NCBI GenBank assembly: GCA_902799385.1
Contig: CADCAK010000004.1
Span: 7,448 to 71,447 of the forward strand
DNA from: an uncultured bacterium
Lineage (GTDB): Bacteria; Verrucomicrobiota; Kiritimatiellia; RFP12; UBA1067
DNA length: 64,000 bases
Direction of reading: 5' to 3'
Each line of letters opens with the position of its first letter. Position 1 is the stretch's first letter. The notes under the pieces were generated by a model that was not told the DNA's origin, made no database searches, and saw only the letters and a program-made list of their open reading frames with translations. This document shows positions 23,052 to 43,400 of this stretch, one piece after another. A program made the translations under genes and the position numbers.

Positions 23052-24203
23052 ATGACTGACAACAAGATGATCGAGCGCGCGAAGCAAGTCTTCGCGGTGG
23101 AGATCGAGGGCCTTGAGAAGACCCGCGACTCCCTCGGCGCGTCTTTTGTCAAGGCGGTCCGGCTCATTCTCGACACCGTCTCGGACGGCGGCATCGTCGT
23201 CGTCACCGGCGTCGGCAAGAACCTGCACATCGCCGAGAAGATGAGCGCCATCTTCTCGTCGACTGGCACGCGCTCGATCGTCCTCAACCCCGTGCAGGCG
23301 ATGCACGGCGACCTCGGCATGGTCTCCGCTAAGGACGTACTTGTCGCGCTCAGCTTCTCGGGCGAGTCGGCCGAGGTGAACAACCTGATACCCGCGATCC
23401 GCCGCCACGGGCTCAAGGTCATCTCGATGACCGGCCGCCCCGACTCGACGCTCGCGCAGATGAGCGACTTGCATCTCGAGATTCCGTGCGGCAAGGAGGC
23501 GTGTCCGTTCGGCATGGCGCCGACGAACTCGACGACGGCCACGATGGCGATGGGCGACGCGCTCGCGATGGTGATGATTGACGCGCAGAAGTTCCCGGTC
23601 GAGGACTATGCGATGAATCATCCGGCGGGAGCGATCGGCAGGGCGCTTGTCATGAAGGTGACGGACGTCATGCGCGCGGGCGAGCGGCTCGCGAAGGTCG
23701 GTCCGGAGGCGACGGTGCTTGATGCGCTGATGGCGATGACGAAGGCGCAGGGCGGCAGTGCCGTTGTCGCAGATGCGGACGGCAAGCTGCTTGGTATCTT
23801 CACCGACGGCGACTTCCGCCGGCTGATGAGTGAGAGGGTGCTTTCGCCTGCGGCGGGTGCTTCTGCGGCTTCGCACCCCTCTAGCGACTGCTTGCGCGGT
23901 TCGCTTCGCTCGGGGGATATGCTAGTGCCTTCGCGCGGCAAAGCCGCGCTAGTGCAAGGTGCTGACACCAAGCACCAAGCACCAAACACCAGCGAAGCGC
24001 AGGCACCAAGCACCATCTTAAAAGACCCTATCTCCCTCTACATGACAAAGACTCCGCTTTTCGTCCGCGACGACGTGTACGCGGCGGAGCTTCTCAAGAT
24101 CTTCGAAAGGAAGCGCATCGACGACCTGCCGGTGTGCGACGCGTCCGGTCGGGTGGTCGGGCTCGTGGACATTCAGGACCTTCCCAAGATGAAGGTCCTC
24201 TGA
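23052..24203 (+). CDS. kdsD: KpsF/GutQ family arabinose-5-phosphate isomerase (SIS + 2 CBS) carrying an in-frame repeat insertion
   Basis: Motifs TGVGK..HIA.K, A.HGDLG, S.SGES.E, EACP..MAPT.STT, HPAG.IG and GIFTDGD.RR, with CBS domains. About 60 extra residues lie between the CBS domains. Confidence 0.88.
   Translation: MTDNKMIERAKQVFAVEIEGLEKTRDSLGASFVKAVRLILDTVSDGGIVVVTGVGKNLHIAEKMSAIFSSTGTRSIVLNPVQAMHGDLGMVSAKDVLVALSFSGESAEVNNLIPAIRRHGLKVISMTGRPDSTLAQMSDLHLEIPCGKEACPFGMAPTNSTTATMAMGDALAMVMIDAQKFPVEDYAMNHPAGAIGRALVMKVTDVMRAGERLAKVGPEATVLDALMAMTKAQGGSAVVADADGKLLGIFTDGDFRRLMSERVLSPAAGASAASHPSSDCLRGSLRSGDMLVPSRGKAALVQGADTKHQAPNTSEAQAPSTILKDPISLYMTKTPLFVRDDVYAAELLKIFERKRIDDLPVCDASGRVVGLVDIQDLPKMKVL
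23837..24014 (+). mobile_element. Intragenic coding palindromic element, copy 1 (in kdsD)
   Basis: Shares a ~125-nt core with three other copies. Bounded by GGTGCTT...AAGCACC. Translates as [42 protein letters not shown]... Confidence 0.85.
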
Positions 24204-24235
24204 TACAGTAGGCACCTTAAGAAAGGAACGAGAAA

Positions 24236-24943
24236 ATGAACAGGAAAATCGTGATGATGACGGCGACGGCCCTCGCGGCCGCAGTGGCGTTCGCGGCCCC
24301 CAGGTCCTCCAGGAAGGCCCCGGCCGCCGCCGGAGGCGACGACGCGCCCACAACCGGTAAGGAGGCGAAGATACTCATCGACCAGTTCCCGAAGCTCGGT
24401 CGCCAGTCCACGCTCGCGGCGCCGTCGCTCCAGGGCAGCTCCATCGTCGGCAAGTGCTACGCGAAGCCGAGGAGCTGGATCGTCCTTGAGACGAAGTACA
24501 CGACTTTCGTGAAGTGGCAGGACCAGCTCACATTCACGTGGCACGTCCTCCTCGAGACGAAGAGCGCGCCGGAGAACAAGGGCAACAAGGAAGGCCTCGC
24601 GCCCTACTCCTATTTCACGACCGCTGTGACCTACCAGAACATCCCGCAGGGCTCGCACGCGGCTTCCGTGTGCCTGCACCCCAGCTACCTTGAGCGCTTC
24701 GGCGAGGCCAAGGCCGTCGGCCTCGTCATTACCAACGCGAAGGGCGAGGTGCTGCAGGGCGACAGCGACGGCACGGTAGGACCCATCAAACCACACACGA
24801 AGTGGTGGGACGACCAGAAGATCATGAACGACCAGCAGGCCGACGGCAAGCCGACCATCGAGCGCCGTCAGGGCCTGACGGACCGCTCCAAGACGATCTG
24901 GGCGCTTGTCAACCCGAACGACTACGAGCAGGTTGCGCAGTAA
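24236..24943 (+). CDS. Exported protein, Amuc_1102-like pilus-cluster protein
   Basis: Signal peptide (MNRKIV..ALAAAVAFA) and an AGAAAGGA RBS. First gene of a five-gene cluster ending in a secretin. The family call rests on synteny and recalled motif similarity. Confidence 0.55.
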   Translation: MNRKIVMMTATALAAAVAFAAPRSSRKAPAAAGGDDAPTTGKEAKILIDQFPKLGRQSTLAAPSLQGSSIVGKCYAKPRSWIVLETKYTTFVKWQDQLTFTWHVLLETKSAPENKGNKEGLAPYSYFTTAVTYQNIPQGSHAASVCLHPSYLERFGEAKAVGLVITNAKGEVLQGDSDGTVGPIKPHTKWWDDQKIMNDQQADGKPTIERRQGLTDRSKTIWALVNPNDYEQVAQ

Positions 24944-25036
24944 TTTAGTTAGGTAGTTGGGTAGTTAGGTAGTTCCAGCCACCAAACCACTTAACCACCA
25001 AACTACTAAACCACTAAACCACCAAACTACTAAACC
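24944..25036. repeat. Inverted pair of 8-nt tandem arrays (TRGGTAGT x3 facing AACYACYA x7) upstream of the pilM-like gene
   Basis: Left arm TAGGTAGT/TGGGTAGT/TAGGTAGT. Right arm AGCCACCA AACCACTT AACCACCA AACTACTA AACCACTA AACCACCA AACTACTA. Confidence 0.85.
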
Positions 25037-25040
25037 AGGA

Positions 25041-26666
25041 ATGGCTAAACGATACTTAACACTCGACATCGGCGCTTCCTCGGTGAAGCTGGCCGAGTAC
25101 GAAGGCGGCAAGGGCGGGCTTACGCTCGTCAACTACGGCGTCGCCGCGCTTGCTGCGCCGCTTGACGCAGGCAACGCCGGTGCGCTCCTTTCGCCGGCGC
25201 TTCTTGAGATCGTCCGCGAGAAGGGCATCAGGCCGGGACCCGTCGCCGTCTCGATTTCGGGGCAGATGGTGTTCCCGCGCTTCGCGTCCATCGCCGCCGC
25301 CGGCGGCGCGGAGAGGTTCGACCAGATGGTCCGCTTCGAGATCGAGCAGAACATACCGTTCCCGATCGACGAGATGATCTGCGACCGCCAGATCCTCGGC
25401 GACAACGAGAACGGCGAGAAGAACGTGATGATCGTCGCCGCGAAGACCGACCAGGTCGAGGATATCGCCGCCGCCATACGCGGCGCCGGGTTCACGCCGG
25501 ACATCGTCGACGTCGCCCCGATAGCCGTCACCAACGTGTTGCGCTACTCCGGCGCGGCCGACGTCGGGTGCTGCGTCGTCCTCGACATCGGCTCCAAGAC
25601 GACCTCCCTCGTGATCGCCGACGGCGACAAGTTGTACAACCGCTCGATCCCTGTCGCGGGCAACACCGTCACCAAGGAGATAGCCTCCGCGCTTGGCTGC
25701 ACTGCCGAGGAGGCCGAGGCGTACAAGCGCGAGAACGCGTACGTCGCGCTCGGCGGCGTGGTTGAAGACGAGGACGAGACGCGCGACCGCGTCTCAAAGG
25801 TGTGCCGCGCCGTGATGACGCGCCTGCACGCCGAGGTGTCGCGCTCAATTAACTTCTACCGCTCGCAGCAGGGCGGCAGCGTCCCCGTGAAGCTCTACAT
25901 CACGGGCGGTACGGCGATTCTCCCGCAGCTCGACCGCTTCTTCGCGGAGAGCCTGCAGCTCGAAGTCGAGTACGTAAACCCGTTCGACGTCGTGGGCGTG
26001 GGCCCCAAGGTCGACGCGGCGGCCCTCGAAGCCGACGTGGCCGTCCTTCCGGCGACGGCGGGTCTCGCGGTCCATGCGGCCGGCCTCGCCGCGTTCTCAA
26101 TCAACCTACTGCCGCCATCGCTCCTGAAGGAGCGCGCCGACGTCGCGAGGATTCCGTTCGTCGCCATCGGCTCCGCCGCGCTCGTCGCGGCCCTGGCGCT
26201 CGTGATGCTCTCGGCTCGCCGCGGCGCCGCCGAGGCCGAGGCCGAGAGCGCCGCCGTGTCGTCCGAGGTGTCGCGCCTCAGGTCTGCGGAGTCGAAGGTC
26301 AAGGAGGCCGCCGCCGTTGAGCGGCGCGAGACCGAGAGGGCCGATGCCTTCAGGCGGCTGTTCGACCGCCGCGCGTCCGCCGTCCGGAAGATCTCCGCCG
26401 TCCGCACCGCTCTCGGCAGCGAGATGTGGATAGAGAAGTGGGAGGGCGACCGCATAACGGTGCGCGGCTGGTCCGACGACCTGAAGACGCTCGTCTCCCG
26501 CACCAAGACCGGCGGCTCCACCGCCGCACAGATAATCGAGGCGCGGCTCAAGGGCTCGCCCGATGTGTCGTCCGTAAAGATCGAGTCGATGACTGACGTC
26601 GGCAAGGACGCCGCGCTCAAGCAGATCGTCATCGTCGTCAAGTTCGGGAAGGAAGAAGCGCGATGA
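25041..26666 (+). CDS. pilM: PilM-like actin-fold assembly protein fused to a PilN-like segment (Amuc_1101-like)
   Basis: Motifs LDIGASSVKL, E.EQ.IPFPIDE, LDIGSKTT.L, RSINFY and TGG, then INLLP, a TM helix and a coiled coil. Confidence 0.8.
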   Translation: MAKRYLTLDIGASSVKLAEYEGGKGGLTLVNYGVAALAAPLDAGNAGALLSPALLEIVREKGIRPGPVAVSISGQMVFPRFASIAAAGGAERFDQMVRFEIEQNIPFPIDEMICDRQILGDNENGEKNVMIVAAKTDQVEDIAAAIRGAGFTPDIVDVAPIAVTNVLRYSGAADVGCCVVLDIGSKTTSLVIADGDKLYNRSIPVAGNTVTKEIASALGCTAEEAEAYKRENAYVALGGVVEDEDETRDRVSKVCRAVMTRLHAEVSRSINFYRSQQGGSVPVKLYITGGTAILPQLDRFFAESLQLEVEYVNPFDVVGVGPKVDAAALEADVAVLPATAGLAVHAAGLAAFSINLLPPSLLKERADVARIPFVAIGSAALVAALALVMLSARRGAAEAEAESAAVSSEVSRLRSAESKVKEAAAVERRETERADAFRRLFDRRASAVRKISAVRTALGSEMWIEKWEGDRITVRGWSDDLKTLVSRTKTGGSTAAQIIEARLKGSPDVSSVKIESMTDVGKDAALKQIVIVVKFGKEEAR

Positions 26667-27712
26667 ACATGTCAAGGTACCAGATAACAATGCTCGCGAC
26701 GGGCGGCGCTGCGCTCGTCGTCTCGGCTGCGCTCGGGGTTCTGGCGTTCAGCGCCTACTCGGCGAAGTCCGAGGCGGCTGAGGCGGCTGAAGGCGATTCC
26801 GCCGCCGTGCGTTCGCTGCTCGGCTCGGCCATAAGCCCCGACGCCGCCAGCGTCGCGGCCATCAACAAGAACCGCGACGCGCTCGCCGGATGGACGGAGG
26901 CCGCGATCTCCACGGCCTCCGCCGGCGACCGGAAGATCGACGCCGACGTCAACGAGGCCGCGCTCAAGCAGAAGCTCGTGGACGAGGCCCGCACGATGGC
27001 GGCCCTCCCGGGCGGCGTGGACGGCAGGATCATGAAGGACGTCTCCGCGTTCGGCTTCCCCGAGTTCGTGACCGGCGACAAGCTGCCGGAGAAGGACCAG
27101 CTCCCGCGCCTGCAGCGCCTTTGGGGCGATGTCTGCACACTTGTCGAGACGCTTTCGGACTGCGGTGTAGTCGAGATCGTCCGCATCGCGCCCGCCGTAG
27201 CGAAGCAGCCCGATCCGGCGGCCGAGGCGAAGGAATCCAGGGGGTCGCGTAACCGCAGGAGGAAGGACGCCGCCGAGGAGAAGCCCGCGTATACCGAGGA
27301 GAAGTACTCTATCGAGTTCCGCGCGAAGCCGGCGGCGCTCGTCAAGGTCGTCAACGCGCTTGCGACGTCCCAGCGCTTCGTCGTCCTGGACTCGATCGAC
27401 TTCGCCCGCGAGGGGGACATGATTGGCAAGGCGCTCGGCGAGGGCGAGAAGAGGGGCGCGGACGAGAAGCAGTCCGCTAAGCCGAGGCGCAGGCGCCGCA
27501 GCGAGGCCGAGCAGGAGTTCGGCGAAGCGGCGGCGGCGGAAGATGCGGACAATGGCATCGTGAACGACCCCGCGAAGGAGGCACCGTTCCTCGTCAAGGC
27601 CACTGTCTCTACCTACGACTTCGGCTTCGCCGCGCAGGCGTCCGCCGGCGGGAACCAGGAAGCCATGCCCGACGAGGGCGAGGGCGCCAAGGCAAAGGAG
27701 GGTGAGGAATGA
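26663..27712 (+). CDS. PilO-like membrane-anchored protein (Amuc_1100-like)
   Basis: N-terminal TM helix and coiled coil, FGF.EF..G..LP motif, PilO-like C-terminal F.A.P..L..VVN.L. ATGA overlap with pilM and syntenic position of Amuc_1100. Confidence 0.6.
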   Translation: MNMSRYQITMLATGGAALVVSAALGVLAFSAYSAKSEAAEAAEGDSAAVRSLLGSAISPDAASVAAINKNRDALAGWTEAAISTASAGDRKIDADVNEAALKQKLVDEARTMAALPGGVDGRIMKDVSAFGFPEFVTGDKLPEKDQLPRLQRLWGDVCTLVETLSDCGVVEIVRIAPAVAKQPDPAAEAKESRGSRNRRRKDAAEEKPAYTEEKYSIEFRAKPAALVKVVNALATSQRFVVLDSIDFAREGDMIGKALGEGEKRGADEKQSAKPRRRRRSEAEQEFGEAAAAEDADNGIVNDPAKEAPFLVKATVSTYDFGFAAQASAGGNQEAMPDEGEGAKAKEGEE

Positions 27713-28794
27713 TTTCCAGGAATTCCGGAGGCGGCTTCTTTGCCGCGCATTGGGACTGGGCCGTAGCTGCGGCCGGAGTTGTGGCGCTTGTCGCCGGCGC
27801 GGCGCTATTCGCGCTGTCGGGCGGTGGCGACCCCGAGGAGAACGCCGCCGACGTCGTGAACCGCCTTAAGTCGGCGAAGAGGTCCGACACGGGCGTGAAG
27901 CCCGTGGAGATGGCGCCTTACGAGCGCGCGCTCCAGTTCGCGGCCAAGCCGCTGCAGGTCGCCGGGGTGGACGACGTAGCTGGGAACTTCCTCGTCTCGG
28001 GGCCGCGCGTGTTCTGCAAGTTCTGCAAGAAGCCGATCAAGGCTGGCGAGAAGGACTGCAAGTTCTGCGGCAAGGCACAGCCGGAGCCGGAGAAGGTCGT
28101 CGCCGACGCGGACGGAGACGGGCTTCCCGACGACTGGGAGAAGAAGCACGGCCTCGACGTCGCGAAGAACGACGCGGACGCGGACCCGGACGGCGACGGC
28201 TTCACCAACGCCGAGGAGTACGCGGCCGGCACCGACCCGTCCGACCGCAACTCCCATCCCGACTACCTGGATTCGCTCAGGATCGTCTTGCCGGCGAAGG
28301 AGACGGTGCTCCCGTTCTACCTGCGCTCGTACATGAAGACTCCGAACGGCATGAAGCTCGAGTTCTTCGACCCGAAGCGCCGCAACGACTACGGGCAGAA
28401 GGGCTACCGCTACTACGTCCTCGTCGGCGAGGCTATCGGCGACACGGGTTTCGTCGCCAAGTCGTTCGAGCAGAAGGAGAAGAAGGCCAAGATCAAGGGC
28501 TCGAACGTGGAGCGCTCGGTCGACGTTTCCGCCGCGACGATCGTGCGCAAGTCGGACGGCAAGGAGCTCGCGCTCGCGCTTGACGAAAAGCGCAAGCCCG
28601 TGGACGTCCAGGCGACGCTCGAATTCAGCCGAGGCGAGACGAAGACCTTCGACGTGGTGCCCGGCAAAATGATCGATCTATGTGGAAGCAAGTACAAGGT
28701 CGTGGGGGTGGAAAGCATCGGGAAGGGGGCGAAAGTCTCCCTCGAAGATCCGCTTCTCGGGAAAATTCGTGTAATCGAAGCCCTTGAACAGTGA
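27709..28794 (+). CDS. Amuc_1099-like protein: TM anchor, CxxC..CxxC zinc ribbon, DADGDG repeats
   Basis: Contains CKFC...CKFC and DADGDGLPDDWE...DPDGDGFTNAEEY..GTDP. Directly upstream of the secretin. Confidence 0.6.
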   Translation: MISRNSGGGFFAAHWDWAVAAAGVVALVAGAALFALSGGGDPEENAADVVNRLKSAKRSDTGVKPVEMAPYERALQFAAKPLQVAGVDDVAGNFLVSGPRVFCKFCKKPIKAGEKDCKFCGKAQPEPEKVVADADGDGLPDDWEKKHGLDVAKNDADADPDGDGFTNAEEYAAGTDPSDRNSHPDYLDSLRIVLPAKETVLPFYLRSYMKTPNGMKLEFFDPKRRNDYGQKGYRYYVLVGEAIGDTGFVAKSFEQKEKKAKIKGSNVERSVDVSAATIVRKSDGKELALALDEKRKPVDVQATLEFSRGETKTFDVVPGKMIDLCGSKYKVVGVESIGKGAKVSLEDPLLGKIRVIEALEQ

Positions 28795-28812
28795 AACGAA
28801 TTAGGATATAAT
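28784..28812 (+). promoter_or_regulatory. Putative sigma70 promoter for the secretin gene
   Basis: TTGAAC (28784-89), 17 nt spacer, TATAAT (28807-12). AGGAG RBS upstream of ATG 28845. Confidence 0.55.
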
Positions 28813-28844
28813 ACGCAATACAACTCATTAGGAGCAAGTTCGAT

Positions 28845-31800
28845 ATGAGGAACCTACGGAAATATGTCGCGTCAACGGCGGCCATCGCTTTCATTGTGCT
28901 CGGCCAGAGCATGAACGCCCAGGATGACCTTGATGACTTGTTGGCAGGTCTTGAGGGCGAAACCCCTCCGGCTGCCCCTGCCGCGCCTGCGCCCGCACCT
29001 GCGGTCGTTGAGCCTGCGCCTGCAGTCGAGGAGCCCGCGCCTGCGCCTGCAGTCGAAGAGCCCGCGCCTGCGGCCGAGGAGCCCGCGCCCGCAGTCGAGG
29101 AGCCCGCGCCTGTGCCTGCGGCCGAGGAGCCCGCGCCTGCGGCAGAGGAGCCCGCGCCCGCGCCCGCCGAGCCTGCACCCGCTGCGGCCGACGAGAAGGA
29201 TCTCAACGACACGCTCAACCTTCTCGACGAGCTTTCCGCCGAGGAGCCTGTCTCCAACGACAAGAGCGACGAGGCACCTGTCGCGCCTGCGCCCGCGCCT
29301 GCGGCCGAACAGCCCGCGCCAGCAGTCGAAGAGCCCGCGCCCGCCGCCGAGCCCGCGCCCGCGCCCGCCGCAAGGTCTGGGGCGCTGCAGCAGCACAAGG
29401 ACGGCCCGCTCATCGACGAGATACTGACGGTCGAGAAGCTGCGCCGCGAGGCGATGGACGTCCAGGCGATGCGCGAGATCCGCGAGGCTAAGGCGTCCAT
29501 GGCGAGCGGCGAGTATGTCGAGGCGGTCCGCCACTACGGCATTGCGATCAAGCTCCTCAACGACAGCCCCAAGGCAATGGAGTACAAGTCCATGTGCACC
29601 GCCGGCATCGCCGAGGGCCTCTACATGGCCGCCCTCGAAGAGGAGCGCACGGGCCGTCGCGAACGCGCGGTGAAGTACATGCAGAAGGCCGTTGACCTGC
29701 GCCACCCGAAGGCCCGCCGCCAGCTCGAGGCGTGGAACAGCACCGAGGATCCCGACGCCCACAAGACGGATGTCTCCGAGATTTCGCACCGCCGCAACGA
29801 TGCCGAGTACAAGACGATCCGCGAAGCGGAGCGCCGCCACCTCAAGCGCGCCCGCCACTTCCTCGCGCAGCGCGAGCTCGACCGCGCCCTCGACGAATGC
29901 GAGCTCGTCCTGCTCAAGGATCCGTACAACCAGGAGGCGCTGCGCCTTAGGGATTCCATCATGCGCAAGCGTGAGGTGATTCTCGCGCAGGAGCGCGAGA
30001 CGGCGCGCAAGGGATGGATAACCGACGTTGACAAGTCGTGGCGGCCGCCCTACGCGGTCAACGCCTCCGCCCGCGAGGAGAAGAAGGGCGAGACGGTTCC
30101 GCGTGAAACCGGCCCCGGCGCGGAGACCACCATCGAGCAGCAGATCGTCCAGCGCATGAAGGCCATGCGCCTCCCGGCGATCTCGTTCAAGCCGCCGGCG
30201 ACGATCATCGACGCCGTCGAGTACTTCCGCGGCGCATCCAAGGACTTCGACGACCCTGCGCGTCCCATCGAGCAGCGCGGCTTCAACTTCGTCCTCAAGA
30301 CGCCCGAGGCCGTCCGCATGCAGCCCGTCGCGGCGGCCGGCGACGACGCCGACGACTTCTCCGACACCGGCTCCGCCGACGCGGCGGCCGGCGGGCCGCT
30401 CGGCGTGCCCGTGATCCCGATGATCACCGCGAGCGACATCACGTTCTACGACGCGCTGAAGCTCGTCTGCGAGTCCGTCGAGTACAAGTTCTCGGTGCAG
30501 GGCCCGATCGTCATGGTCATGCACAAGGACATGTCCACCGAAGAGCTAGTCACCCGCTCGTTCCCCGTGCTGTCGTCCTTCACCGAGAAGATGGGCAGCG
30601 CCAAGGAGGACATCACGACGATGCGCGCCAGCGGCGGCAGCGGGTTCGGCGGCGGTTCGCGCAAGAACGACGAAGGCGAGGAGAACGAGGAGAGGGACTG
30701 GAAGGAGTTCTTCTCGCTCCTGGGCGTCAAGTGGCCCGAGGGTAGCTCGATCTTCTACGTCAAGACGGTCGGCCGCCTCTTCGTCAAGAACACCCAGGAC
30801 AACCTCGCCGAGTTCGAGAACGTCCTCGCCCAGCTCAACCAGCAGGTCACGCTCGTCGAGATTGAGACGAGGTTCATTGAGGTCTGCCAGGACGACCTGA
30901 GCTCGCTCGGCTTCGAGTGGATACTCAACAGCGACTACTCCATTGGCCTCAATAAGCACATTGCCAAGGCGCTCGGCGTGCGCGGCGGCGGTTGGGGCCT
31001 TAGGGGCGGCAACGCCGACAACGCCCACACCTACAGGACCTCGTCCACGTACGATTCGTCCGACACCCTAGGCACGTCCTCGTCCCGCGAGTACAGCACC
31101 GACACTCTTATCCAGAATGGCGGCACGCCCAGCACGGTGTCCTCGGACAGGAGGGTGTCGTCGCTCAGTTCGCTGTTCTCTGAGCAGGGTGGCAGCACCG
31201 TGTCGCGCTCCGACACGTACAGCCGCACGATGTACGACCGCTCCACCGGGGCGGACTGGATCAGCACCGGCGGTCGCCGCACCATCGGTGCCAACGCGAT
31301 CCAGGGCGTAAGCGACTTCGGCGACGCCTCCAACATCAGCGGGGTTTATTCGACGGGGCAGCGCTACCTCTCGACGCTCAACAACCACATTTCCGGCCAG
31401 GGTAGCGCCTACAACGATCAGTTCGTGAAGCTCAACGCGTTCCTCGGCTCGGCGGACCTCTCGATGATCCTGCACATGCTCGCGCAGCGTAGCGACACCG
31501 ACCTCCTCTCCGCGCCGAAGGTGCTTACGCGTCCCGGCGAGGAGGCAGTCATGAAGGTCGTCACGGAGTACATCTACCCGACCGACTACGACGTGCAGCT
31601 CCAGTCGAGCTCTTCGAGCGGCAGCAGCTACGGCGGTAGCCAGTCGGCGATTCTCGCCGTCGTCGAGCCCCAGAGCTTCACGATGCGCGAAGTGGGTGTC
31701 ATCCTCCAAGTCACGCCGACGCTGACCGACGACGGCAACGTGGTGGACCTCGAGCTCAACACGCAGGTAGTGGACGAGCCGACGTGGAAGAACTACGGCA

Positions 31801-32327: not shown

Positions 32328-32349
32328 GGCCGGTTTGCAACGACAGAGC

Positions 32350-33120
32350 ATGAAACTCGCGTTGACAGGGGGGATTGCCTGCGGCAAGTCCCTCCTTTCC
32401 GTTTTCCTGAACGAACTCGGCGTCGAGACGCTCGACGCCGACGACGTCGTGCACGAGATACTTCCCGACCCCGAGGAACGTCGGCGCATCGCGGCAGAGG
32501 TCTTCGCCGATCCCGAAAAGCGCCGCGCCCTTGAAGCGAAGATTCACCCGTTGGTAAAAGAGAGGATTGACCAGTGGCTGGGAGAGGTGCTTTCGCCTGC
32601 GGCTAGTGCTTTCGCGGCTTCGCACCCCTCTAGCGACCGTTTGCGCGGCGCGCTTAGCTCGGGGGATATGCTAGTGCTTTCGCGCGGCAAAGCCGCGCTG
32701 GTGCAGGGTGTGGGTAAGCACCAGGCACCAGGCACCAGGTCGGCGCAGCCGACCGCAGGCACCAGCGCCGCAGGCGCGCAGGCACCAGCCGCAGGCGAAA
32801 GCACCTGCGCCGCAGGCGCGCAAGCACCAACTATCCGCATAGCGATAATCCCTCTTCTCTTCGAAGCCCACTGGGAGAAAAATTTTGATATAATATGTTG
32901 CGTCGCCTCTTCACGCGAGAGGCAAATCGAACGGATGACGGCGACGCGGGGGATGACACGTGCGGAGGCCGAGGCCAGGCTTGCGGCGCAGCTGTCGGTC
33001 GAGGAAAAGGCAAGGCGTTCGCACTACGTCATCCGGAACGACGGAACGGCCGACGAACTTCGCGCAGAGGCGCAAAAGCTTGTCGACTGGCTGAAGACTC
33101 ATAACCACAAAACCACTTAA
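32350..33120 (+). CDS. coaE: Dephospho-CoA kinase with an in-frame repeat insertion
   Basis: P-loop ALTGGIACGKS, DAD..VH, LEA.IHP, IPLLFE, R..AQ and VI.NDG. About 80 inserted residues. Confidence 0.9.
   Translation: MKLALTGGIACGKSLLSVFLNELGVETLDADDVVHEILPDPEERRRIAAEVFADPEKRRALEAKIHPLVKERIDQWLGEVLSPAASAFAASHPSSDRLRGALSSGDMLVLSRGKAALVQGVGKHQAPGTRSAQPTAGTSAAGAQAPAAGESTCAAGAQAPTIRIAIIPLLFEAHWEKNFDIICCVASSRERQIERMTATRGMTRAEAEARLAAQLSVEEKARRSHYVIRNDGTADELRAEAQKLVDWLKTHNHKTT
32585..32828 (+). mobile_element. Intragenic coding palindromic element, copy 2 (in coaE)
   Basis: Shared core. A perfect 20-bp inverted repeat AGGTGCTTTCGCCTGCGGCT (32585-32604) / AGCCGCAGGCGAAAGCACCT (32787-32806) encloses 222 nt, followed by one extra tail module. 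Confidence 0.88.
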
Positions 33121-33140: not shown

Positions 33141-33142
33141 TT

Positions 33143-34705
33143 ATGGCAGAAGAACTAGACGTGTTCGCGGGCGCAGTCACCAATGGCGCCGCGCAGAAAC
33201 CCCAGCAACCCCAGCCTCAGCAGCAGGGGGGCAGCATCGGCAACGGCCAGAAGAAGCGGTTCCACAGCCGCGGAGGGAAGGGCTTCGCCCGCAGCGCCAA
33301 GCAGAACAACTCCCCGATTCGCGGCGCGAACGGCGCGGAAAGCGTAAACCCGCTTCTCAACGCGCCGCTTCCCACCGAGCAGCGCCCGCTCGAACCCGAG
33401 ACGCCCGCGAACCCGAACCGCAACCCCGATCTCCCCGAGTACCGCCTCGCCGACATCCAGACCTGGGCCGCGCCCGTCATAGTCGAGCGCATGATGCCCG
33501 GCGCCGACCCCGAGGAGCTCGGCACCTACCGCAAGCACGAGCTCATCTTCGCGGCGATACGCAGGTACCTCGCGAACGGCGGCGCCGTGCTCGCCTCGGG
33601 CTGCCTTGAAATCGTCCGCGAGGGGCACGGCTTCCTCCGCTCGGCGAAGAACAACTTCCTCGCCTGCCCGGAGGACGTCTTCGTAACGCAGCAGCAGATA
33701 CGCCGCCACGCGCTCAGGACGGGCGACATCGTGGAGGGCCCGATCCGCGACCCGCGCGACCGCGACCGCTTCTTCTGCCTCGGCAACGTCGCGATCGTCA
33801 ACGGCAAGGAGCCGTCCGTCGCCGCGCGCGTGATCCACTTCGAGAACCTCACCGCCACGTTCCCGACGAGGCGCATCATCCTCGAGACCGACCCCAAGGA
33901 GTTCTCGACTCGCGTCGTAGACCTCTTCACGCCGATCGGCTTTGGCCAGCGCGGGCTCATCATCGCGCCGCCGCGCGTCGGCAAGACGGTCCTACTTCAG
34001 AAGATGGCCAACGCCATATCGAAGAACTACCCGGAGGCGATGCTCATAATCCTCCTCATCGACGAGCGTCCCGAGGAAGTGACGGACATGCAGCGCAACA
34101 CGAAGGCGATGGTGCTTTCGTCGACGTTCGACGAGGAGCCGCAGCACCACGTGAACGTCACCGAGATGGTGCTCGAGATGTCGAAGCGCCAGGTCGAGAA
34201 CGGCCGCGACGTCATAATACTCATGGACTCCCTCACGCGCATGGCGCGCGCCTACAACACCGTCCAGCCGCACTCCGGCAAGATACTGACGGGCGGCGTG
34301 GACGCGCTTGCGATGCACAGGCCGAAGCGCTTCTTCGGCGCGGCGCGCAACATCGAGGGCGGCGGCTCGCTCACCATCATCGCCACCGGCCTCGTCGACA
34401 CCGGCTCCAGGATGGACGAGGTGATCTTCGAGGAGTTTAAGGGCACGGGCAACATGGAGATCGTCCTCGACCGCAGCCTTGCCGACAAGCGCATCTATCC
34501 CGCGATCGACATCGACAAGTCGGGGACGCGCAAGGAGGACCTGCTGCTCGACCCGATGGAGCTCGAGAAGACGTGGGGCATGCGCCGCATCCTCTCCGAC
34601 GCGGGCCCCGAGAGCGCGATGAAGTCGGTGCTAAATTCGCTGAAGAAGACCCAGTCCAACCCGGAGTTCCTTCTCGCCCTCGACTTGAAGAACCTGGAGC
34701 GCTGA
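33143..34705 (+). CDS. rho: Transcription termination factor Rho with an N-terminal low-complexity extension
   Basis: Motifs [42 protein letters not shown] and [11 protein letters not shown]. Confidence 0.97.
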
Positions 34706-34731
34706 AATCCCCAACGGAAAGGCGGTTCACC

Positions 34732-37700
34732 ATGAAGAAGGCCATAGCTCCCGTCGTTATGCTGCTTGCGACGTTGCCGGCGCTTGCGTCGGCCCGGCGC
34801 GTAGACTACGCCGGCTACCGGATCGGCGATTCCGGCGTGCTTGACGACCAGACCCGCATTTCCGGCCTGCCCGCGCTGGTCGAGGAATCGGGCCGCCCCG
34901 AGCAGACTGCGGTTGAGCTTGCGGCCGAGGTTGTAGTTGGCCAGAGGCCCGTCCGGTGGTGGGCGTACAGCAGCGCGAGCAACGTCCCGGCGTCGCAGAC
35001 CGACCCCAATCCCCATACGCAGTACAACGACGTCGTGGAGCTCGCCGCCGGTGTCTATTCGCTGACGTGGACCTACGGCACGGCCGGCTATTCGCCTGCG
35101 TTTGCCGTCGTCGACTACGACTACATAACGTACAGCCTCTCCTACAACGCGAACGGCGGCAGCGGGCCCCTTCCCCCGACCGAGACGCGCATCGTCTACA
35201 CGAACTCGGTTGAAATAGCGGCCGGCGGGCTGTCGCGCACTGGCTACGCCTGGAGCGGCTGGACGAACAGCCTGTCGACAACCGTTTGGACGGGCGGCGA
35301 GACCGTTTCGGGCGGCGAGCTGGGGCTCAACTCGGTTGTCGACGGCTCCAACGTCGTCCTCCGCGCCAAGTGGACGCCGAACGTCTACACTGTGAGATTC
35401 CTGAAGAACACGTGGGACGACGTGGTCGGCGACACGCCCTCCATGTCGCTGACGTACGACGTGCCCGCCAACTTGACTTCCAATGCGTTTGTCCGCACGG
35501 GATACAGGTTCTCGGGATGGGCGACGGAAGAGGGCGGGGACCGGGTCTACAGGGACGGCGCCCAGGTCGTCAACCTGTCCGCGGTCAACATGGACACGGT
35601 CAGCCTCTACGCAGTATGGGCGGCGAAGACGTTCTCGGTGAAGTACCATAGGAACGACGGCTCCGGCCAGACGAGGACTCAGGGGAACCAGTCATTCGAC
35701 ACCCCCGTGGAGATCGTCTCGGAATCCCCCCGCGTCGATTCCGGCTATGAATTCGCCGGATGGGCGACGTCTCCCGACGGCGTGGTGGAATACGAGGCGG
35801 GCAGCAAGTACCAGATCGACCCCGGCGACGCGGACGTCGTCCATCTATACGCCGTATGGTCGCCCGTCGAGTACACCGTGAGGTTTGACGCGAACGGCGG
35901 CGAGGGGACGATGGCCGACGCGGTCGTGAGGTACGACGAAGTCTACACGGTCCCCGGCTGCGGCTTCTCTAAGGCCGGAGTCGATTTCCTCGGCTGGGCG
36001 ACGAACGTCGCCGCAGGCGTGGCGTTCGTCGGCGGGGAGGCCGTCTCCAACCTCGCGGCAAAGGCGGGCGCCGTCGTCACATTCTACGCCGTGTGGACGG
36101 AGACGCGGTACGTCGCGTTCTACGGCAACGGCGCGGACAACCCGGATGCAATGCTGGGCGATGCGATGACATTCGAGGGCCTCGAGACAAAGACGCTCGT
36201 GCCGAACAGGTTCGAGAGGACGGGCTACTCCTTCTCCGGTTGGGCGGTCGGCGAGGCGGCGGCTGCCGCGCGGGAAGTCGCCTACACCAACTGTGAGGAC
36301 GTCGTCAGCGCGGACCTGTGGGGGGCGACGGGCGAGACGAACGTCTTCTGGGCGGTCTGGCTGGCGAACGGGTATGCCGTGGCCTTTGACCCCGGCGGCG
36401 GCGCCGTCTCGCCGGCTTCAAAGGATGTCGTCTACGACGAGGCGTATGGCGACCTTCCGCAGCCGGTGCGGACGGGGTACGGGTTCGGCGGCTGGTACGA
36501 CGATGCGTCCGGTGGGTCGAGGGTGACTTCGGCAAGCGTCGTGAAGACGGCGGGCGACCACACGCTCTACGCGCGCTGGACCGCCAACAGCTACGTGGTT
36601 TCGTTCGATCCGCATGGCGGGACGGTCTCGCCAGCGTCCAACGTGGTGGCCTATGCCTCGGCCTACGGCGACCTGCCGACGCCCGAGAGGTGGGGCTTCA
36701 AGTTCGTCGGCTGGTACGATGCCGCGTCCGACGGCTCGCCGGTGACGGCGGACACCGCTGTCGCGACGCCTGCCGACCACACGCTCCACGCCAGGTGGGC
36801 CGCGTTGAGATATGTGGCGTTTGAAGGCAACGGGGCCGAGAGCGCCGACGCGATGGCCGGGGACACGATGACTTTCGAGGGCGTCGAGACGAAGGCCCTC
36901 GTCGCCAGCAAGTTCGTGAAGACGGGCTTCACTTTCGCGGGGTGGGCGACGAACGAGGCCGCCGCCGCCGCGCTGGACGTCGCCTACGCCGACCGCGCGA
37001 ACGTCGTCAGCACCAACCTGTGGGAGTCGCCCGGCGGAACGAACTTCCTCTACGCGGCCTGGCGGACGAACGCGTACACCGTGGTGTTCAAGAGGAACGG
37101 CGGCACGCTCACGCGCGACGACATGGAAGACCAGGTCTTCCTCTATGGCCAGGAGCAGGAGCTGTCGGAGCTCAATTTCGTCTCGGACCTGGAGTTCAGA
37201 GGATGGGCGACCAGCGAGACAGGCGACGTCGTGTTTGGCGACATGGCGACGGTGTCCAACCTGACCGCCGAAGCCGACGGCGTGGTGGTTCTCTACGCGG
37301 TATGGGACAACGGCGGCCTTTCCAAGGCGATGCACTGCGGCAACCTTGCCTGGAAGACGCTCGAGAACGGCACCGACTGGCAAGTCGCCTACGGCGAGGG
37401 CGAGGGATGCGATCCCAGCGGGTCAGCCGTCTCCAACATGGTGTTCTGGACCTCCAACGAGGCATACCTAAAGTCTAAGGACCTTTCGTTTAAGCCGGCG
37501 ACGTCGGGAGGCATGCTGTCGTTCTGGTACAAGACGTCTTCCAACGACAGGTGGAACTACCTCACTTTCAATGGCGAGGGAATCGCCTCGAGCACGACGT
37601 GGAGGCAGTACGGCCCCGTCTACGTGGACGGCGTTGTCGGCGCCAGGATATCCTACAGGGCCGACCAAAGCTACGGCGAAGACGCCTATACCGTCTGGAT

Positions 37701-40491
37701 CGACCAGGTGAAGTGGGAGCCGGACGGCGTGGAGTCGCCCGAGGACTTCGAGGCGATAGAGCTGCTGCCGCGCAATGCCATCGTCAACGGGGAGGAGGCT
37801 GGCAATGCGTTCTTTGCCGCCACGGGAACGCGCGTGGACCGGGGTCATGCAGCCCCGCGCGTCTGCTGCACGGCCGAGGCCATGCCGCTCGAGGGGATCG
37901 TGTTCGACGGCTGGCGGCTGACGGCGGGCGGGGAGTCCTGTGCCACGAACGGCAACCCGCTTTTCATCGACGGCAGGTACGCATGCTTCACGAACGAGAG
38001 CGTTTCGACCTGCGATGTCCGCGCCGTGTTCAAGTGGATCGAGTACCGCATCCGCTACGATGCAAACGGCGGCCACGGAACGGTTGCGCCCGATTCGTCT
38101 AGCTACTTCTACACCAACGAAGTCGCGCTTGCGTACGCGAGCCCGTCGCCCGGCTACAGCCTCGCCGGCTGGAGCACGAACGCGACCGGAAGGGCCGCGT
38201 TCATGCCGGGGCAGGTCGTGACGGGGGCCGACCTCGGCGCGACGGCGGACGGGGTCGTGACGCTCTACGCGGAATGGACGCAGAACGTGTACACCGTCAC
38301 GTTCCGCTACAGGGACGGCAGCGGCGCACTCGTCGGCGCGGCCCAGTCCGTCCTCGGCACGGAGAGCGCGCTGCCGCCCGATCCGTCCGAGTACGATTCG
38401 TGGGCTGACCACGGGTTCATCGGCTGGGACGTGGACTATTCAAGCGTCGTCGGCGACATGATGGTGACCGCGCAGTACGAGCAATGCGAGGCCTGCACGG
38501 TCAGGTTTGAGCCGGGCGACGGCGCAGTCGGCTCGATGGGGGACATGGACTGCCTCGTCGGCGTCGAGCAGTGCCTTGCGTCCAACGCCTTCACGAAGGT
38601 CGGCTACGTCTTTGACGGCTGGGCGGTCGAGCCCAGCGGCGACGTGGCGTATGCCGACGGCGCGTCCGCTAGGTTCAATGCGGACGCCACGCTCTACGCC
38701 GTATGGTCGCCGATCCGGTATTCAATCGCCTTCGACGCGAATGGCGGCGAATGGCAGACCGACCCGTTTGAAGCGGAGTGCGTCTACGACGAACCGGTTT
38801 CGTTGCCGACTGGCATATTTGCCCGCGCCGGCCACGTGATGGCCGGATGGGTCTGCGGCGGGATGAACTACGCCTGCGGCGCGGTCGTGTCAAACCTGGC
38901 GGCGACGGTCGGCGCCGTCGTCGTGATGGCGGCCAGGTGGAGCTCCGTCGCGGATCTGCCCGTTGCGGTGTCCGGCCTTGTCTACGACGGCTCTGCGAAG
39001 ACCGGCGTCGTTGCGAGTGCGGGTTGCCTGCTTGCCGGCCACGTGGCGACGGGCGCCGGTTCGTACACCGCGACGGCGACTCTGGAGGAAGGGCGCGTCT
39101 GGCCCGACGGCACGGCCGGCGCGCGAACGGTAGCGTGGTCGATTGCCAAGGCGACGTACGACATGGGCGGGGTGGCGTTTGCGGACAGGACCTTCGAGGC
39201 CGACGGCACGCCGAAGTCGCTCGCCGTCTCGGGAACGCTTCCTGCCGGAGTGACGGTGTCCTATTCCGGCAACGGCATGACCGAGCCTGGGACATACAGG
39301 GTGACGGCGAGATTCTCGGGCGACGCGGCAAACTACGAGCCGATTCCCGACAAGGAGGCGACGTTGACAATAACCAGGAAGTCCGAGCCCGCTCCGCCCG
39401 ACCCGGGCCCCGATCCCGTCGATCCCGAGCCGGATCCGGAAGGTGTGCCCGAGCTTCATCCGAGCGGCATCGCCGCGCTGGGCGCCTTCACGGCCGAGAA
39501 GGCGGCGACCTACAACGGCTGGCTGAAGGACGGCGACGGGAGGATTGTCGCGCTGTTGATCGTCAAGACCACGGCGGCGAAGGCGGGAAGGGCGACGAAG
39601 TCCACGATTTCCGTGACGCCCGTGGACGGAAAGAAGTACACGAGGAAGACGACGTTCTTTCCCGGTGGGAACCCGACCGACGAATACGGCCTTGTCTACG
39701 GCGCGCGCGGGCTTCTCGGCACGTTCGGCGGCTATTTTGCCGAGGCCGCAGTCGATGTCTACAAGTCCAAGGTCGCCGAGGTGAAGTCGCTTGCCGCGGA
39801 CATTCCCGCTGCGACGCATACCTTCGCCGTGGACACTGGGAACGGGACTGCGGTATTCTCGGCCGTCGTCGCGAACACCGGGAAGACGAAGGTGCAGGGA
39901 TTCCTCGAGGACGGCGCAAGGATATCGGTCTCCGCCACAGGCGCGCTCGGGGAAGGCCACTTTGCCGTTCCGATAGTCTCGCCGAAGGCGGCGGCGAGGT
40001 GCGGCTTTGTCCTCTGGCTGCCGCTTGACGGCGGTTCGCCGACGCTCGCGAACTTCTACGACGCGACCTGGACGGCGTCGTCGTCGGGCGGGTCCTACGC
40101 CATGTCCGACGGCGAGCACATCTTCGACTTCGATGAGCCGGACTTCCGCGACTATCTCGCTTCGGTGGACGGCTTTGACGTAGCGCCGGTCGGCGCGGTT
40201 TTCGCCGTCAGGCTCGGCAAGTGGGACGCCGGCAGGACGGTCGGCCGGCTCAAGGCGGTCGACGGCGTGCCGACGGTCACGGGGACGGCGACCCCTTTGA
40301 ACCTGGGCGCGCTCAAGCTGTCGTACACGGCGAAGTCCGGGCTCGTGAAGGGTTCGTTCAAGCTGTACTACATGGACGGCAGGCGGCTCAAGTACGACAC
40401 CGTGACGGTCACGGGCGTCGTGGTGGACGGCAGGCTCTTCGGAAGCGGTACGATAAAGAAGCTCGGCTCCTTTGCCGTGTCTGCGCAATGA
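34732..40491 (+). CDS. Large secreted protein with many InlB B-repeat (Listeria-Bacteroides repeat) domains, a Pro-rich linker and a basic C-terminal domain
   Basis: Start ATG 34732 ([21 protein letters not shown] signal peptide). Repeated Y.V.FD.NGG...RTGY.F.GW...LYA.W units. MBG-like segment near 39150-39375. Confidence 0.85.
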
Positions 40492-43400
40492 GCGACATCG
40501 TAATAAGGAACGCAAGGGTCCACAACCTGCGCGGGATCGACGTGACGATTCCACGCGATTCGCTGACGGTCGTGACTGGGCTATCGGGCTCCGGCAAGTC
40601 GTCGCTTGCGTTCGACACGCTGTACGCCGAGGGGCAGCGCCGCTACGTCGAGTCGCTTTCGGCCTATGCGCGGCAGTTCCTCGACAGGATGCAGAAGCCC
40701 GATGTCGAGAAGATCGAGGGGCTTTCGCCCGCGATATCAATAGAGCAGCGCACCACGAGCGGCAACCCGCGCTCTATTGTGGCGACCGTCACCGAGATAC
40801 ACGACTACCTTCGAATCCTCTACGGGGCCATTGCGGTTCCACACTGCCCGAAGTGCGGCAGGCCGGTCACGCGCCAGTCGGCCGAGCAGATCGTGGAGGC
40901 GATTCTTGCCGCAGCTTCGCCTGTGGCGGGTGCTTTCGCGGCTTCGCACCCCTCTAGCGACCGCTTGCGCGGCTCGCTTCGCTCGGGGGATACGCTAGTG
41001 CCTTCGCGCGGCAAAGCCGCGCTGGTGCAGAGTGCGGGTAAGCATCAGGCTCCAAGCACCAGGTCGGCGGAGCCGACCGCAGGCACCAGCGCCATAGGCG
41101 CGCAGGCCCTAGTCGAAGGCGCAAGCACCCGCATCATCATCTACGCGCCTTTGGTGAAAGGCAAGAAGGGCCGCCACGAAGAGCCGCTTGCGCTGGCGAA
41201 GCGCAACGGCTTCGCCCGCGTGCGCATCGACGGAACGGTCTATCCCGTGGACGAGCTTCCCGAACTTGACAGGAAGAAGGCCCACGACATCGACGTCGTG
41301 ATCGACCGCCTCGTCGTCCCCGCCGAGCCCGACACCGCGTTCAGGACGCGCCTCACCGACTCGGTTGAGCTCGCGCTCAGGACCGGCGGGGGGATAATGG
41401 AAGTGGAGTCGCCGGGCGAGAGCCGCGCGACGTGCGGCGCGACGACATATTCCGAGCTCAACGCCTGCGTCGGATGCGGCATTTCCTTCGAAGAGCTTAA
41501 GCCCCGCTCGTTTTCGTTCAACTCGCCGTTCGGCGCATGTCCCAGGTGCGCGGGGCTCGGGCAGCTCTACTACTTCGACGAAGACCTCGTCGTGCCAGAC
41601 AAGTCGCTTCCGCTCGAGGAGGCGATACATCCTTGGCGGCGCATGGGGCAGATGAACATCCTCTACCACAGGGAGCTACTTGCGCACATCGCGAAGCAGT
41701 ACAAGGTGAAGCTCTCTACGCCCTACGAGAAGCTACCGGCGAAGTTCCGCCACGGGCTCATGCACGGCTTCAAGGACGACCTCGTCCTTCCGTGGCGGCG
41801 CGTGGACCGTCCGTTCGAGGGAGTCCTTGCGTCGCTTCAGCGCCGCTTGGACGAGGCGGAGGACGACGAGATGCGCGCGAAGTTCGAGGCGTACCAGAGT
41901 TTCCGTACCTGTCCCGACTGCGACGGTTCGCGCCTGAGGCCCGAGTCGCGCGCGGCGACCGTCGCGGGGAAGTCTATCGTCGAGGTCATGGCGATGCCCG
42001 TCACCGAGGCATTGGAGTTTTTCAAGGAGTTTGCGGTAGGGGCGTCGCGGCCATCCGCAAAGCTTGCCGGGCTCAAGGACGTAATAGCCGAGATCGTGCG
42101 GCGGCTCCAGTTCCTTCTTGACGTCGGGCTCGACTACTTGACGCTCGACCGCGCAGCGTCCACTCTTTCCGGCGGCGAGATGCAGCGAATCCGCCTCGCT
42201 ACGCAGATCGGCTCTGGGCTCACTGGCGTCCTCTACGTCCTCGACGAGCCGACGATCGGCCTGCACCCGCGCGACAACGAACGGCTCATCTCCACGCTGA
42301 AGGGGCTTCGCGACAGGGGCAACACCGTCGTCGTCGTCGAGCATGACGAAGAGATGATGAGAAACGCCGACTACATCGTCGACCTCGGCCCCGGCGCGGG
42401 ACGCGAGGGCGGCAAGGTAATGTACCAGGGCGACTTCGGGGGGCTGCTCAAGTCGAAGTCGCTGACGGCAGATTATCTGACGGGGAGAAAGAGGATGGTG
42501 CCTTCGCCTTCGGCGGGTGCTTCCGCGGCTTCGCATCCCTCTAGCGACCGCTTGCGCGGCTCGCTTCGCTCGGGGGATATGCTAGTGCCTTCGCGCGAAA
42601 AAGCCGCGCTGGTGCAGGGTGCGGATAAGCACCAGGCACCAAGCACCAAGCACCAGCGAAGCGCAAGCACCAGGTTGGCGGAGCCGACCGCAGGCACCCA
42701 TTACCTAACCATCTCCGGCTGTACCGAGCACAACCTCAAGAATGTCACGGTGCGCTTCCCCGTCGGCGCGTTCACGGTCGTGACAGGCGTGTCGGGTTCG
42801 GGCAAGTCCACGCTCGTCGACGAGACGCTCAAGCGGGCACTTTTCCAGAAGTTCTACCGCACGAAGGACGCCCCCGGCAAGTTCAGGAAGCTCGCCGGCT
42901 GGGAGAACTTCGACAAGATCGTCGAGATCGACCAGTCGCCCATCGGCCGCACGCCGCGCTCTAACCCGGCGACGTACGTCGGCTTCTTTTCCGAGATACG
43001 CGAGCTTTTCGCGAAGACCGAGTCGGCGCGCGCGCGCGGCTACACGGCGGGGCGCTTCTCCTTCAACGTGAAGGGCGGGCGCTGCGAGACGTGCGGTGGC
43101 GACGGATTGCAGAAACTCGAGATGAGCTTTCTTCCCGACGTCTATGTCACGTGTGAGCAGTGCGGCGGCAAGCGCTTCAACGCCGAGACTCTCGAAGTCA
43201 CCTACGGCGGCAGGAACATCGCCGATGTCCTCGAGATGACCGTTGCCGAGGCGTGCGAGTTCTTCGCGAAGGTGCCGTCGCTCGCCCGCAGGCTCAAGAC
43301 GCTTGCCGATGTCGGGCTCGGCTACATCGCGCTCGGCCAGTCGGCGACGACACTCTCCGGCGGCGAGGCGCAGCGCATCAAGCTCGCCACCGAGCTTTCC

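Follow-up and report, generated by a model that had tools for sequence, protein, structure and literature searches.

In-frame palindromic repeats with a nested three-helix core in kdsD, coaE and uvrA of an uncultured Kiritimatiellia bacterium

Four palindromic segments lie in frame in kdsD, coaE and, twice, uvrA of an uncultured bacterium (GTDB lineage Verrucomicrobiota; Kiritimatiellia; RFP12; UBA1067), within a 64,000 nt stretch of contig CADCAK010000004.1 (positions 7,448-71,447 of the forward strand; assembly GCA_902799385.1), referred to here as the window. Each segment is composite, with a three-helix core seated in a longer carrier. With a probability of roughly 0.6, we read the four segments as recent insertions specific to this lineage, from one subfamily of a group of small structured palindromic repeats that spans the genus, that is, as selfish, non-autonomous DNA of the kind represented by repetitive extragenic palindromes (REPs) and Rickettsia palindromic elements (RPEs). 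The evidence comprises the in-frame placement of the copies, their absence from orthologues, a covarying core that recurs in both orientations across the genome and the genus, and the existence of the same carriers without the core.

The window genome (G000, with the window on contig C4) is a metagenome-assembled genome (MAG) of 2.7 Mb in 102 contigs, 77.5% complete, and the metagenome runs containing its uvrA region are labelled bovine gut. Cores were located with a covariance model, R1, built from 26 aligned cores of G000, with matches counted at E<=0.01; host genes were taken as Pfam-supported when the open reading frame (ORF) gave a match at E up to 1e-5. A regular expression for the core (CACCNC...GNGGATA) was dropped in favour of R1, having given 45 matches compared with 35-44 in shuffled sequences; a looser version performed worse. 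The copies, cores and host genes have the following positions in the window.

23837..24014, + strand: composite copy 1, in frame in kdsD, between CBS1 and CBS2, about 59 aa
23871..23922, + strand: three-helix core of copy 1 (R1 match, C4:31318-31369, 70.8 bits)
32585..32828, + strand: composite copy 2, in frame in coaE, about 81 aa
32620..32671, + strand: three-helix core of copy 2 (R1 match, C4:40067-40118, 69.6 bits)
40914..41129, + strand: composite copy 3, in frame in uvrA, directly before the UvrB-interaction domain; left end truncated or diverged
40944..40995, + strand: three-helix core of copy 3 (R1 match, C4:48391-48442, 77.3 bits, top-scoring)
42497..42698, + strand: composite copy 4, in frame in uvrA, in the linker preceding the second ATPase domain
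42531..42582, + strand: three-helix core of copy 4 (R1 match, C4:49978-50029, 72.6 bits)
23052..24203, + strand: host gene kdsD (SIS and two CBS domains; ORF, Pfam)
32335..33120, + strand: host gene coaE (dephospho-CoA kinase; ORF, Pfam)
40221..43676, + strand: host gene uvrA (listed ORF, Pfam)

Four in-frame copies and their insert-free orthologues

The composite copies are 178-244 nt in length, all on the + strand, with pairwise identities of 83-92.5%. A 32 nt stretch of the core matches the window four times at up to three mismatches, compared with no match in 100 shuffles. Each copy folds as a closed hairpin, its 5' end pairing with its 3' end, and the folds lie far below those of shuffled sequences (z = -4.2 and -6.7 as RNA and -4.8 as DNA). 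Two or three CTAG sites are present in every copy, and each is stop-free in exactly one forward frame, which in all four cases is the frame of the host gene. On the Pfam profiles, the coaE copy falls between about positions 84 and 105; of the two uvrA copies, the first sits just ahead of UvrA_inter and the second before the second P-loop. An earlier note on this DNA had described the four copies at these coordinates, in these genes, strand and frame, with no intergenic copy in the window, a hairpin-rich fold, CTAG sites that leave a single frame open per strand, frequent nonsynonymous differences and these same insertion sites in KdsD, CoaE and UvrA; all of this is borne out here, the only R1 matches on C4 being the four copies themselves.

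What is conserved among the copies bears on whether the inserted peptide might be a protein module under selection, a functional loop or domain. Every copy is open in the gene frame and the peptide begins alike in all four, as would be expected of such a module. However, the variable columns fall almost evenly on codon positions 1, 2 and 3 (7, 8 and 10, respectively), and among 66 differing codons 45 are nonsynonymous and 21 synonymous. This even spread indicates that it is the nucleic-acid structure that is conserved and not the peptide, as the earlier note had supposed. In other genes the core is read as at least five different peptides, in differing frames and orientations. An AlphaFold model of KdsD gives confident SIS and CBS domains, and assigns the insert (residues 265-316) a predicted local distance difference test score below 50 without secondary structure, a result that is partly expected since the alignment rows lacked the insert. 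The segment is thus modelled as disordered. We consider a selected module very improbable.

The closed hairpin, with its paired 5' and 3' ends, also raises the question of whether RNA excision, translational bypass or an intein-like step eliminates the segments, so that the protein is made without them. Such removal would require neither a frame-keeping length nor a stop-free frame, yet all four copies keep both, with only one of the three frames per strand open. No ribozyme or intron family of Rfam is matched either: at gathering thresholds the Rfam 15 families find only two tRNAs in the window and nothing in the core, and a scan of 23700-24150 at E<=10 returned two weak, unrelated matches. 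We regard removal as highly unlikely. The two tRNA genes lie on opposite strands, at 49339-49426 (+) and 49536-49626 (-).

Orthologues in the genus are free of the inserts. UvrA was located in all 60 genus genomes searched, and the window inserts occur in none of the 29 aligned loci, 21 of which have no insert of at least 12 aa at all. KdsD and CoaE were each located in 39 of 40 genus genomes; every KdsD match ends at the insertion point and none of the 29 aligned sequences has the insert, while 38 of the 39 CoaE genes show split matches around it, G053 giving one continuous match. The alignment with orthologues proposed in the earlier note therefore finds relatives of all three genes without the inserts (38 of 39 for CoaE). 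On the syntenic contig of a close relative, G020, the window inserts are missing at all four sites; the first uvrA site there holds an insert of its own, of 44 aa, with the core reversed (R1, E = 1.6e-5). Alignment with relatives also suggests that the real start of the window uvrA is probably near 40488 (MSDIVIRN...).

In other species, the corresponding linkers of UvrA and KdsD hold inserts of palindromic or heptamer type that are unrelated and give no R1 match. These have been seen in UvrA of L127 (G069), L128 (G057) and L154 (G060) and in KdsD of L213 (G018), L219 (G043) and L237 (G055), as Ser/Asp/Arg-rich tracts mirrored by Pro/Ser-rich tracts of up to 122 aa. Because different inserts occupy the same linkers in several species, these linkers are permissive sites, hit more than once. 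A comparable case is LeuRS: the double-core segment of the G000 enzyme is absent from all four relatives that could be compared (G017, G012, G052 and G020), and the piece from G010 begins downstream of the site. The G000 LeuRS (L193, C3:10027-12924) is about 80 aa longer than those of its relatives, with extra segments at query residues of about 241-275, 408-461 and 829-854, the middle one containing the two inverted cores.

Repeats are known to break assemblies, and contigs of two metagenome runs, X1 and X2, end inside copies, as would be expected if the inserts were an artefact of assembly or binning. Logan contigs of X1, which may be the source sample, nevertheless cross all four uvrA junctions without a single mismatch, and contigs of X2, from another study, enter copy 3 from its two sides by 21 and 18 nt (positions 42476-42697 are uncovered in X2, a gap that proves nothing). 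The frame is kept in all copies and the same kind of insert is found in related proteins from other assemblies. The likelihood of an artefact is accordingly next to nil. Loose contig ends of X1 at window position 42673 join the right end of a carrier to a flank that belongs to none of the four known sites, which suggests at least one more copy in the sample, in the unassembled part of G000 or in a relative.

Between coaE and uvrA the window contains an open frame of 1972 aa (34573-40491, + strand).

A covarying core nested in a separate carrier

The core nested in the carrier is 45-48 nt long, and cores of the family at large measure 46-55 nt. Three helices are read in the 26 aligned cores of G000. 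The closing helix P1 has 4 bp (CCNC/GN'GG), with a third pair that varies between C-G, G-C and A-U. P2 is a hairpin of 4-5 bp and P3 a hairpin of 5 bp, both with loops of 3-4 nt that are mostly UUC (GAA on the opposite strand), P3 having a UUC triloop. The junction 5' of P2 reads NTAG, mostly CTAG, with GTAG in two of the 26 cores (C19 and C3:14670), and the flanking unpaired CA and the 3' GAUA are invariant. Two positions of P3, which are C/U mismatches in most copies, would in our reading form tandem G.A pairs next to the GAA triloop on the other strand; tandem G.A motifs beside a GAA triloop are stable.

The helices covary. Changes on both sides occur in six of the 13 pairs of the G000 alignment and controls with slid pairing collapse; none of 500 shuffles matches the observed covariation score or percentage paired, while 40 of 500 match the count of six pairs. 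In 48 cores from 41 loci of other genomes, an alignment fitted to R1 and so biased toward the structure, both-side changes are found in nine of the 13 pairs and no measure is matched by any of 500 shuffles.

The carrier is built from GGTGCYT heptamers, their inverse AAGCACC and mini-hairpins of 4-7 bp. Its heptamers form a 7 nt pair (GGTGCYT...RGCACC) at the ends of three of the four window copies, the left one being absent in copy 3. Five carriers elsewhere in G000 lack a core, have the flanks of the window copies and align around the core as a gap. They run from GGTGCYTGC through a mini-hairpin of 4-5 bp with a TTCG loop, in which the stem varies and the pairing is kept, to TGGTGCTTGC, a second hairpin (GCNCGGC-AAA-GCCGNGC) and then TGGTGC. 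In the window copies, the core takes the place of the 3' half of the first mini-hairpin. The conserved part of the unit is its centre and not its ends, and the arms vary between subfamilies.

When the 68-aa insert was searched against 5.8 billion protein clusters, six proteins matched, three of them encoded by the window itself. Of the remaining three, a CoaE has the insert in the same place and a TatD-family protein has it in shortened form; the third, a UvrA of 1156 aa from another assembly (P0004), is very similar to the window UvrA outside the inserts. P0004 has carriers at both window sites, with one proline in place of the 16 core-encoded residues, and two more core-less carriers at other UvrA sites. 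The net difference between a carrier with and without the core is 45 nt, which keeps the frame. Since P0004 has core-less carriers at the same sites, the core is a separable module within the carrier, one that is gained or lost inside an existing carrier; insertion, precise loss or gene conversion would all fit. The single element of core plus variable tail pictured in the earlier note gives way to a core nested in a separate carrier that also exists without it.

Dispersal of the core and candidate mobilising enzymes

R1 finds 36 cores in G000, the four in the window being the only ones on C4. The core stretch recurs across many contigs with very different flanks and arms and in both orientations. 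Of the 36 cores, 18 fall within Pfam-supported genes, nine in the orientation of the gene and nine opposite to it, and four of the 18 are in aminoacyl-tRNA synthetase genes. The hosts are KdsD, CoaE, UvrA (twice), a class II synthetase of the Asp/Lys/Asn type, ProRS, LeuRS (twice, as an inverted pair), the DFP domain of CoaBC, a U32 peptidase, an MFS transporter, GltB, Lnt, a GT4 glycosyltransferase, an amidohydrolase, a phage capsid ORF, a DDE transposase (a weak, partial core) and a Y1 transposase. For another nine, no open frame of 170 aa spans the core; the remaining nine are undecided, a Pfam scan of five of them having given no match. Inverted pairs are found at C3:11257/11348, in LeuRS, and at C20:60031/60215. 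Core orientation could not be read against local GC skew, the pattern being too unclear to use ('+' cores nine positive and nine negative, '-' cores four positive and 14 negative).

Beyond G000, the core is present in 75 of 100 other genus genomes at 1-57 copies each under strict filters, and deeper scoring gives 96 copies in G020, 47 in G115, 41 in G099, 34 in G063 and 32 in G110. A sample drawn from the whole order gave cores in 13 of 20 genus members, in three of 22 genomes from other genera of the family and, as single matches, in two of 98 from other families. The prediction of many copies genome-wide consequently stands for the inner core and falls for the full unit, as blastn and nhmmer searches of G000 returned only the four window copies. 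Nor did these searches find a longer parent element matching the copies in the 77.5% complete MAG. A host gene was sought around a cluster of three cores in G017 (L002) without result. As to phage carriage, neither of two scans with the two main core types found a match in viral contigs.

The clearest sign of recent dispersal comes from G063, in which ten loci share an identical 55 nt core and an eleventh differs by one base, in unrelated surroundings; direct CCCCRTT heptamers, varying in number, flank the core on both sides. Taken together, patchy copy number, positions not common to relatives, both orientations within genes and conservation of structure but not of peptide form the pattern of selfish DNA.

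Several intergenic cores of G000 (C21:55864, C17:19155, C17:17307, C3:14670 and C6:56482) precede, as judged by eye, TGGTATAAT- or TGCTATAAT-like sequences by about 50-90 nt, which suggests that they may sit just upstream of promoters. These TGnTATAAT-like sequences, together with strong covariation and unpaired bases that are invariant genus-wide, are what might be expected of a functional RNA or DNA motif kept by the host, for instance for protein binding or regulation. Such a role is doubtful for a motif that ranges from 0 to 96 copies between species of one genus, that occupies positions in G000 not common to close relatives, that lies in genes nine times in one orientation and nine times in the other and that matches no Rfam family.

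A different question is whether any transposase is needed. The core could be passed along by homology-driven copying between heptamer arrays, through gene conversion or template switching at replication, with the arms serving as homology. Cores of the GTTCCCC subfamily have direct arrays of one and the same heptamer, in variable number, to either side. Heptamer arrays without cores are also plentiful: G000 contains 27 (GGGGAAC)n arrays, of which 26 fall within open frames of at least 300 aa and 25 have no core nearby, and 14 (AAGCACC)n arrays, all in open frames of at least 300 aa and 12 without a nearby core. The carriers at the same two UvrA sites have the core in G000 and lack it in P0004, a difference that calls for concerted conversion or else precise loss. 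It is also in keeping with such copying that the four full units are clustered within 19 kb in a single orientation. Homology alone, however, leaves unexplained how arrays or carriers reach new, unrelated sites such as the 11 loci of G063, and it needs no recognition structure, yet the covarying helices and the invariant unpaired CA...GAUA look like one. We therefore think this route rather unlikely. The arrays typically have about four units (for example C39:23431-23467, C3:96452-96482 and C13:30297-30329); four G-rich units is the number needed for a G-quadruplex.

Under the preferred reading, that of selfish insertions, mobility would be conferred by an enzyme acting in trans. The core would have replaced the 3' half of the first mini-hairpin of a carrier, and copies in essential genes would survive only where their length is a multiple of three, their sequence stop-free in frame and the linker tolerant of added length. 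Surviving copies would then be translated as disordered loops of 59-81 aa, presumably neutral for the host protein. The structure itself would be kept for a need at the level of the nucleic acid, most likely recognition of the folded single strand by the enzyme, for which HUH/Y1 transposases of the REP-associated tyrosine transposase (RAYT) or TIRYT type are candidates.

G000 has four Y1_Tnp-like genes. Two are paralogues, 87% identical, in a unit of about 1.09 kb with inverted repeats of about 24 nt (L041, C20:69870-73037, positions 827-1914; L042, C25:21494-24655, positions 809-1913). These inverted repeats contain GGGGACAG, which fits the GGGGWSAS motif that part of the text of PMC3733652 reports for 'TIRtrons'. 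An 86 nt repeat adjoining the unit also occurs on five other contigs. A third gene is a RAYT-like fusion (L043, C58, 228-1469, minus strand) with a core just past the HUH motif; the G020 orthologue has no core there. The fusion family, which also occurs in relatives (L183-L187), has a conserved C-terminal domain of about 150-200 aa, unassigned in function, with motifs such as STF(T/I)SP..., and inserts at the same two loops interrupt several orthologues. Across ten Y1 loci (four in G000 and six in relatives), a core lies within the gene in one case, and in another two cores follow about 550 nt downstream. The only reverse-transcriptase gene of G000 (C2:115052-115675, minus strand; RVT_1, E = 1.2e-42, in a 524-aa frame) lies about 10 kb from the core-bearing phage capsid ORF.

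Several observations weigh against the preferred reading. Cores on both sides of a Y1 gene were found at none of the ten Y1 loci, so that the HUH or RAYT gene flanked by the repeat that the earlier note proposed looking for did not emerge. The RAYT-fusion type, the one Y1 type for which co-occurrence with the core was tested, showed no link to it: this type occurs in 25 of 100 genomes without relation to core counts, being present in the core-less G010, G075, G082 and G087 and missing from the core-rich G012, G016, G018 and G043. As no Y1 gene is linked to the core, the mechanism of spread is one that we infer. No direct repeat that would mark a target-site duplication is seen at the four junctions, where variable host linkers blur the ends, and the conserved centre of the unit, in place of conserved ends, is unlike a classical miniature inverted-repeat transposable element (MITE). 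Local copying or gene conversion would account just as well as transposition for the presence of all four full units in one orientation within 19 kb. Because its copies differ by 7.5-17%, the window subfamily shows no sign of current activity. The repeat counts are lower bounds, as G000 is incomplete and repeats break assemblies, and the compared genomes are kin of G000, which makes the tallies non-independent.

We raise tentatively, as a minor possibility, that the core of 45-55 nt may itself be the mobile unit. It would be far smaller than a MITE and would enter, or precisely leave, the apical mini-hairpin of heptamer-array carriers and plain arrays with the frame kept. It might be recognised as folded single-stranded DNA, to which the strand with the GAA triloop and tandem G.A would point, by an enzyme not yet linked to it; the G-rich heptamer arrays could then be landing pads or footprints.

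Relation to known repeats

Rickettsia palindromic elements, reportedly described by Ogata et al. in 2000, are the closest functional parallel drawn by the earlier note, and an RPE-like, non-autonomous repeat fits all of the evidence found here. According to the available parts of PMC10969869, they are palindromic units of about 150 bp that lie in frame in unrelated housekeeping genes and encode a conserved peptide. On that description the two share in-frame palindromic insertion, a fold that appears to be kept and a mobilising enzyme that is not known. They differ in lineage, and in that the peptide here is not conserved, the core being read in several frames and in both orientations. The window repeat may thus work like an RPE, a likeness by description and not a placement by sequence.

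The novelty that the earlier note assumed is reduced by published intragenic REPs, above all those of the soil verrucomicrobium Opitutus terrae, which are a closer precedent than RPEs. The sections seen of Di Nocera et al. (2013; PMC3733652) report REPs inside known genes of several species, most often Opitutus terrae and Rickettsia conorii, with two REP inserts in each of the two uvrA genes of O. terrae and with hits in tRNA synthetase genes of other species. They describe intragenic REPs as encoding tens of residues in presumed flexible linkers, name Y1 transposases as suspected mobilisers, note that many RAYT-like genes are bounded by unrelated inverted repeats, and define the REP as a single stem-loop of 20-40 bp with an unpaired GTAG/CGTC tag at one end (PMC3733652). 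The family described here resembles the GTAG REPs of O. terrae in being a small palindromic repeat found in and between genes, with double inserts in uvrA, and resembles REPs in general in its many dispersed copies (36), some of them intragenic (18 in Pfam-supported genes). It departs from GTAG/CGTC REPs, as far as that source describes them, in its three-helix junction of 46-55 nt and full units of 178-244 nt in place of a single stem-loop, in a tag that is mostly CTAG and not among the degenerate forms given there, in being nested in heptamer-array carriers and in its longer inserts of 59-81 aa. A REPtron, that is, a RAYT flanked by repeats, would have a repeat on each side of its transposase gene, and no Y1 gene here is so flanked. 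Because the repeat is larger, has three helices and mostly CTAG and is not found flanking a RAYT, we do not class it as a GTAG/CGTC REP.

REPINs are inverted REP doublets, mostly extragenic and clustered beside their RAYT, in the parts consulted of Bertels and Rainey (2011; PMC3116915). Likenesses to that account are the short hairpin, non-autonomous character of the repeats, the RAYT-like genes in G000 and the inverted core doublet in LeuRS; the window copies, in contrast, are singlets with one core each, in genes and not beside a RAYT. Intragenic MITEs such as QMITE1 of Coxiella burnetii, as outlined in portions of PMC5896051 and PMC10969869, are likewise small and non-autonomous and fuse in frame with host ORFs. 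MITEs so described have terminal inverted repeats, target duplications and a parent insertion sequence, whereas here neither a duplication nor a parent was seen. It is the conservation of the centre rather than the ends, with no target duplication seen, that leads us to set the repeat apart from MITEs. PARCELs were considered and rejected, being, in the part of PMC2996958 consulted, a 25-residue protein motif in tandem arrays.

G-rich GGGNATC heptamer repeats have been reported in bacteria, in the excerpt seen of PMC4692102. The arrays of G000 resemble bacterial heptamer tandem repeats in being short, typically of about four units, and scattered genome-wide; a point of contrast is that nearly all (GGGGAAC)n arrays here (26 of 27) lie in long open frames. 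STRR are heptamer tandem repeats of heterocystous cyanobacteria, and small dispersed cyanobacterial repeats are said by Elhai et al. (2008) to nest in other repeats and hairpins. Literature searches on palindromic in-frame inserts and heptamer repeats, not aimed at this genus, found no prior description of the repeat. The core is therefore best regarded as a lineage-specific repeat of the known REP/RPE kind and not as a member of a named family.

The essential enzymes UvrA, KdsD, CoaE, the aminoacyl-tRNA synthetases, GltB and Lnt tolerate repeated in-frame invasion in this large, uncultured genus of the cattle gut, and this invasion enlarges and diversifies proteins between close species. The modular build, from core through mini-hairpins to heptamer arrays, makes the family a natural system for tracing the origin and spread of REP-like DNA, and nearly identical UvrA genes in which a shared carrier either has or lacks the core offer a similar opportunity for genome comparison. 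The covariance model of the core flags such inserts in the gene calls and alignments of these MAGs.

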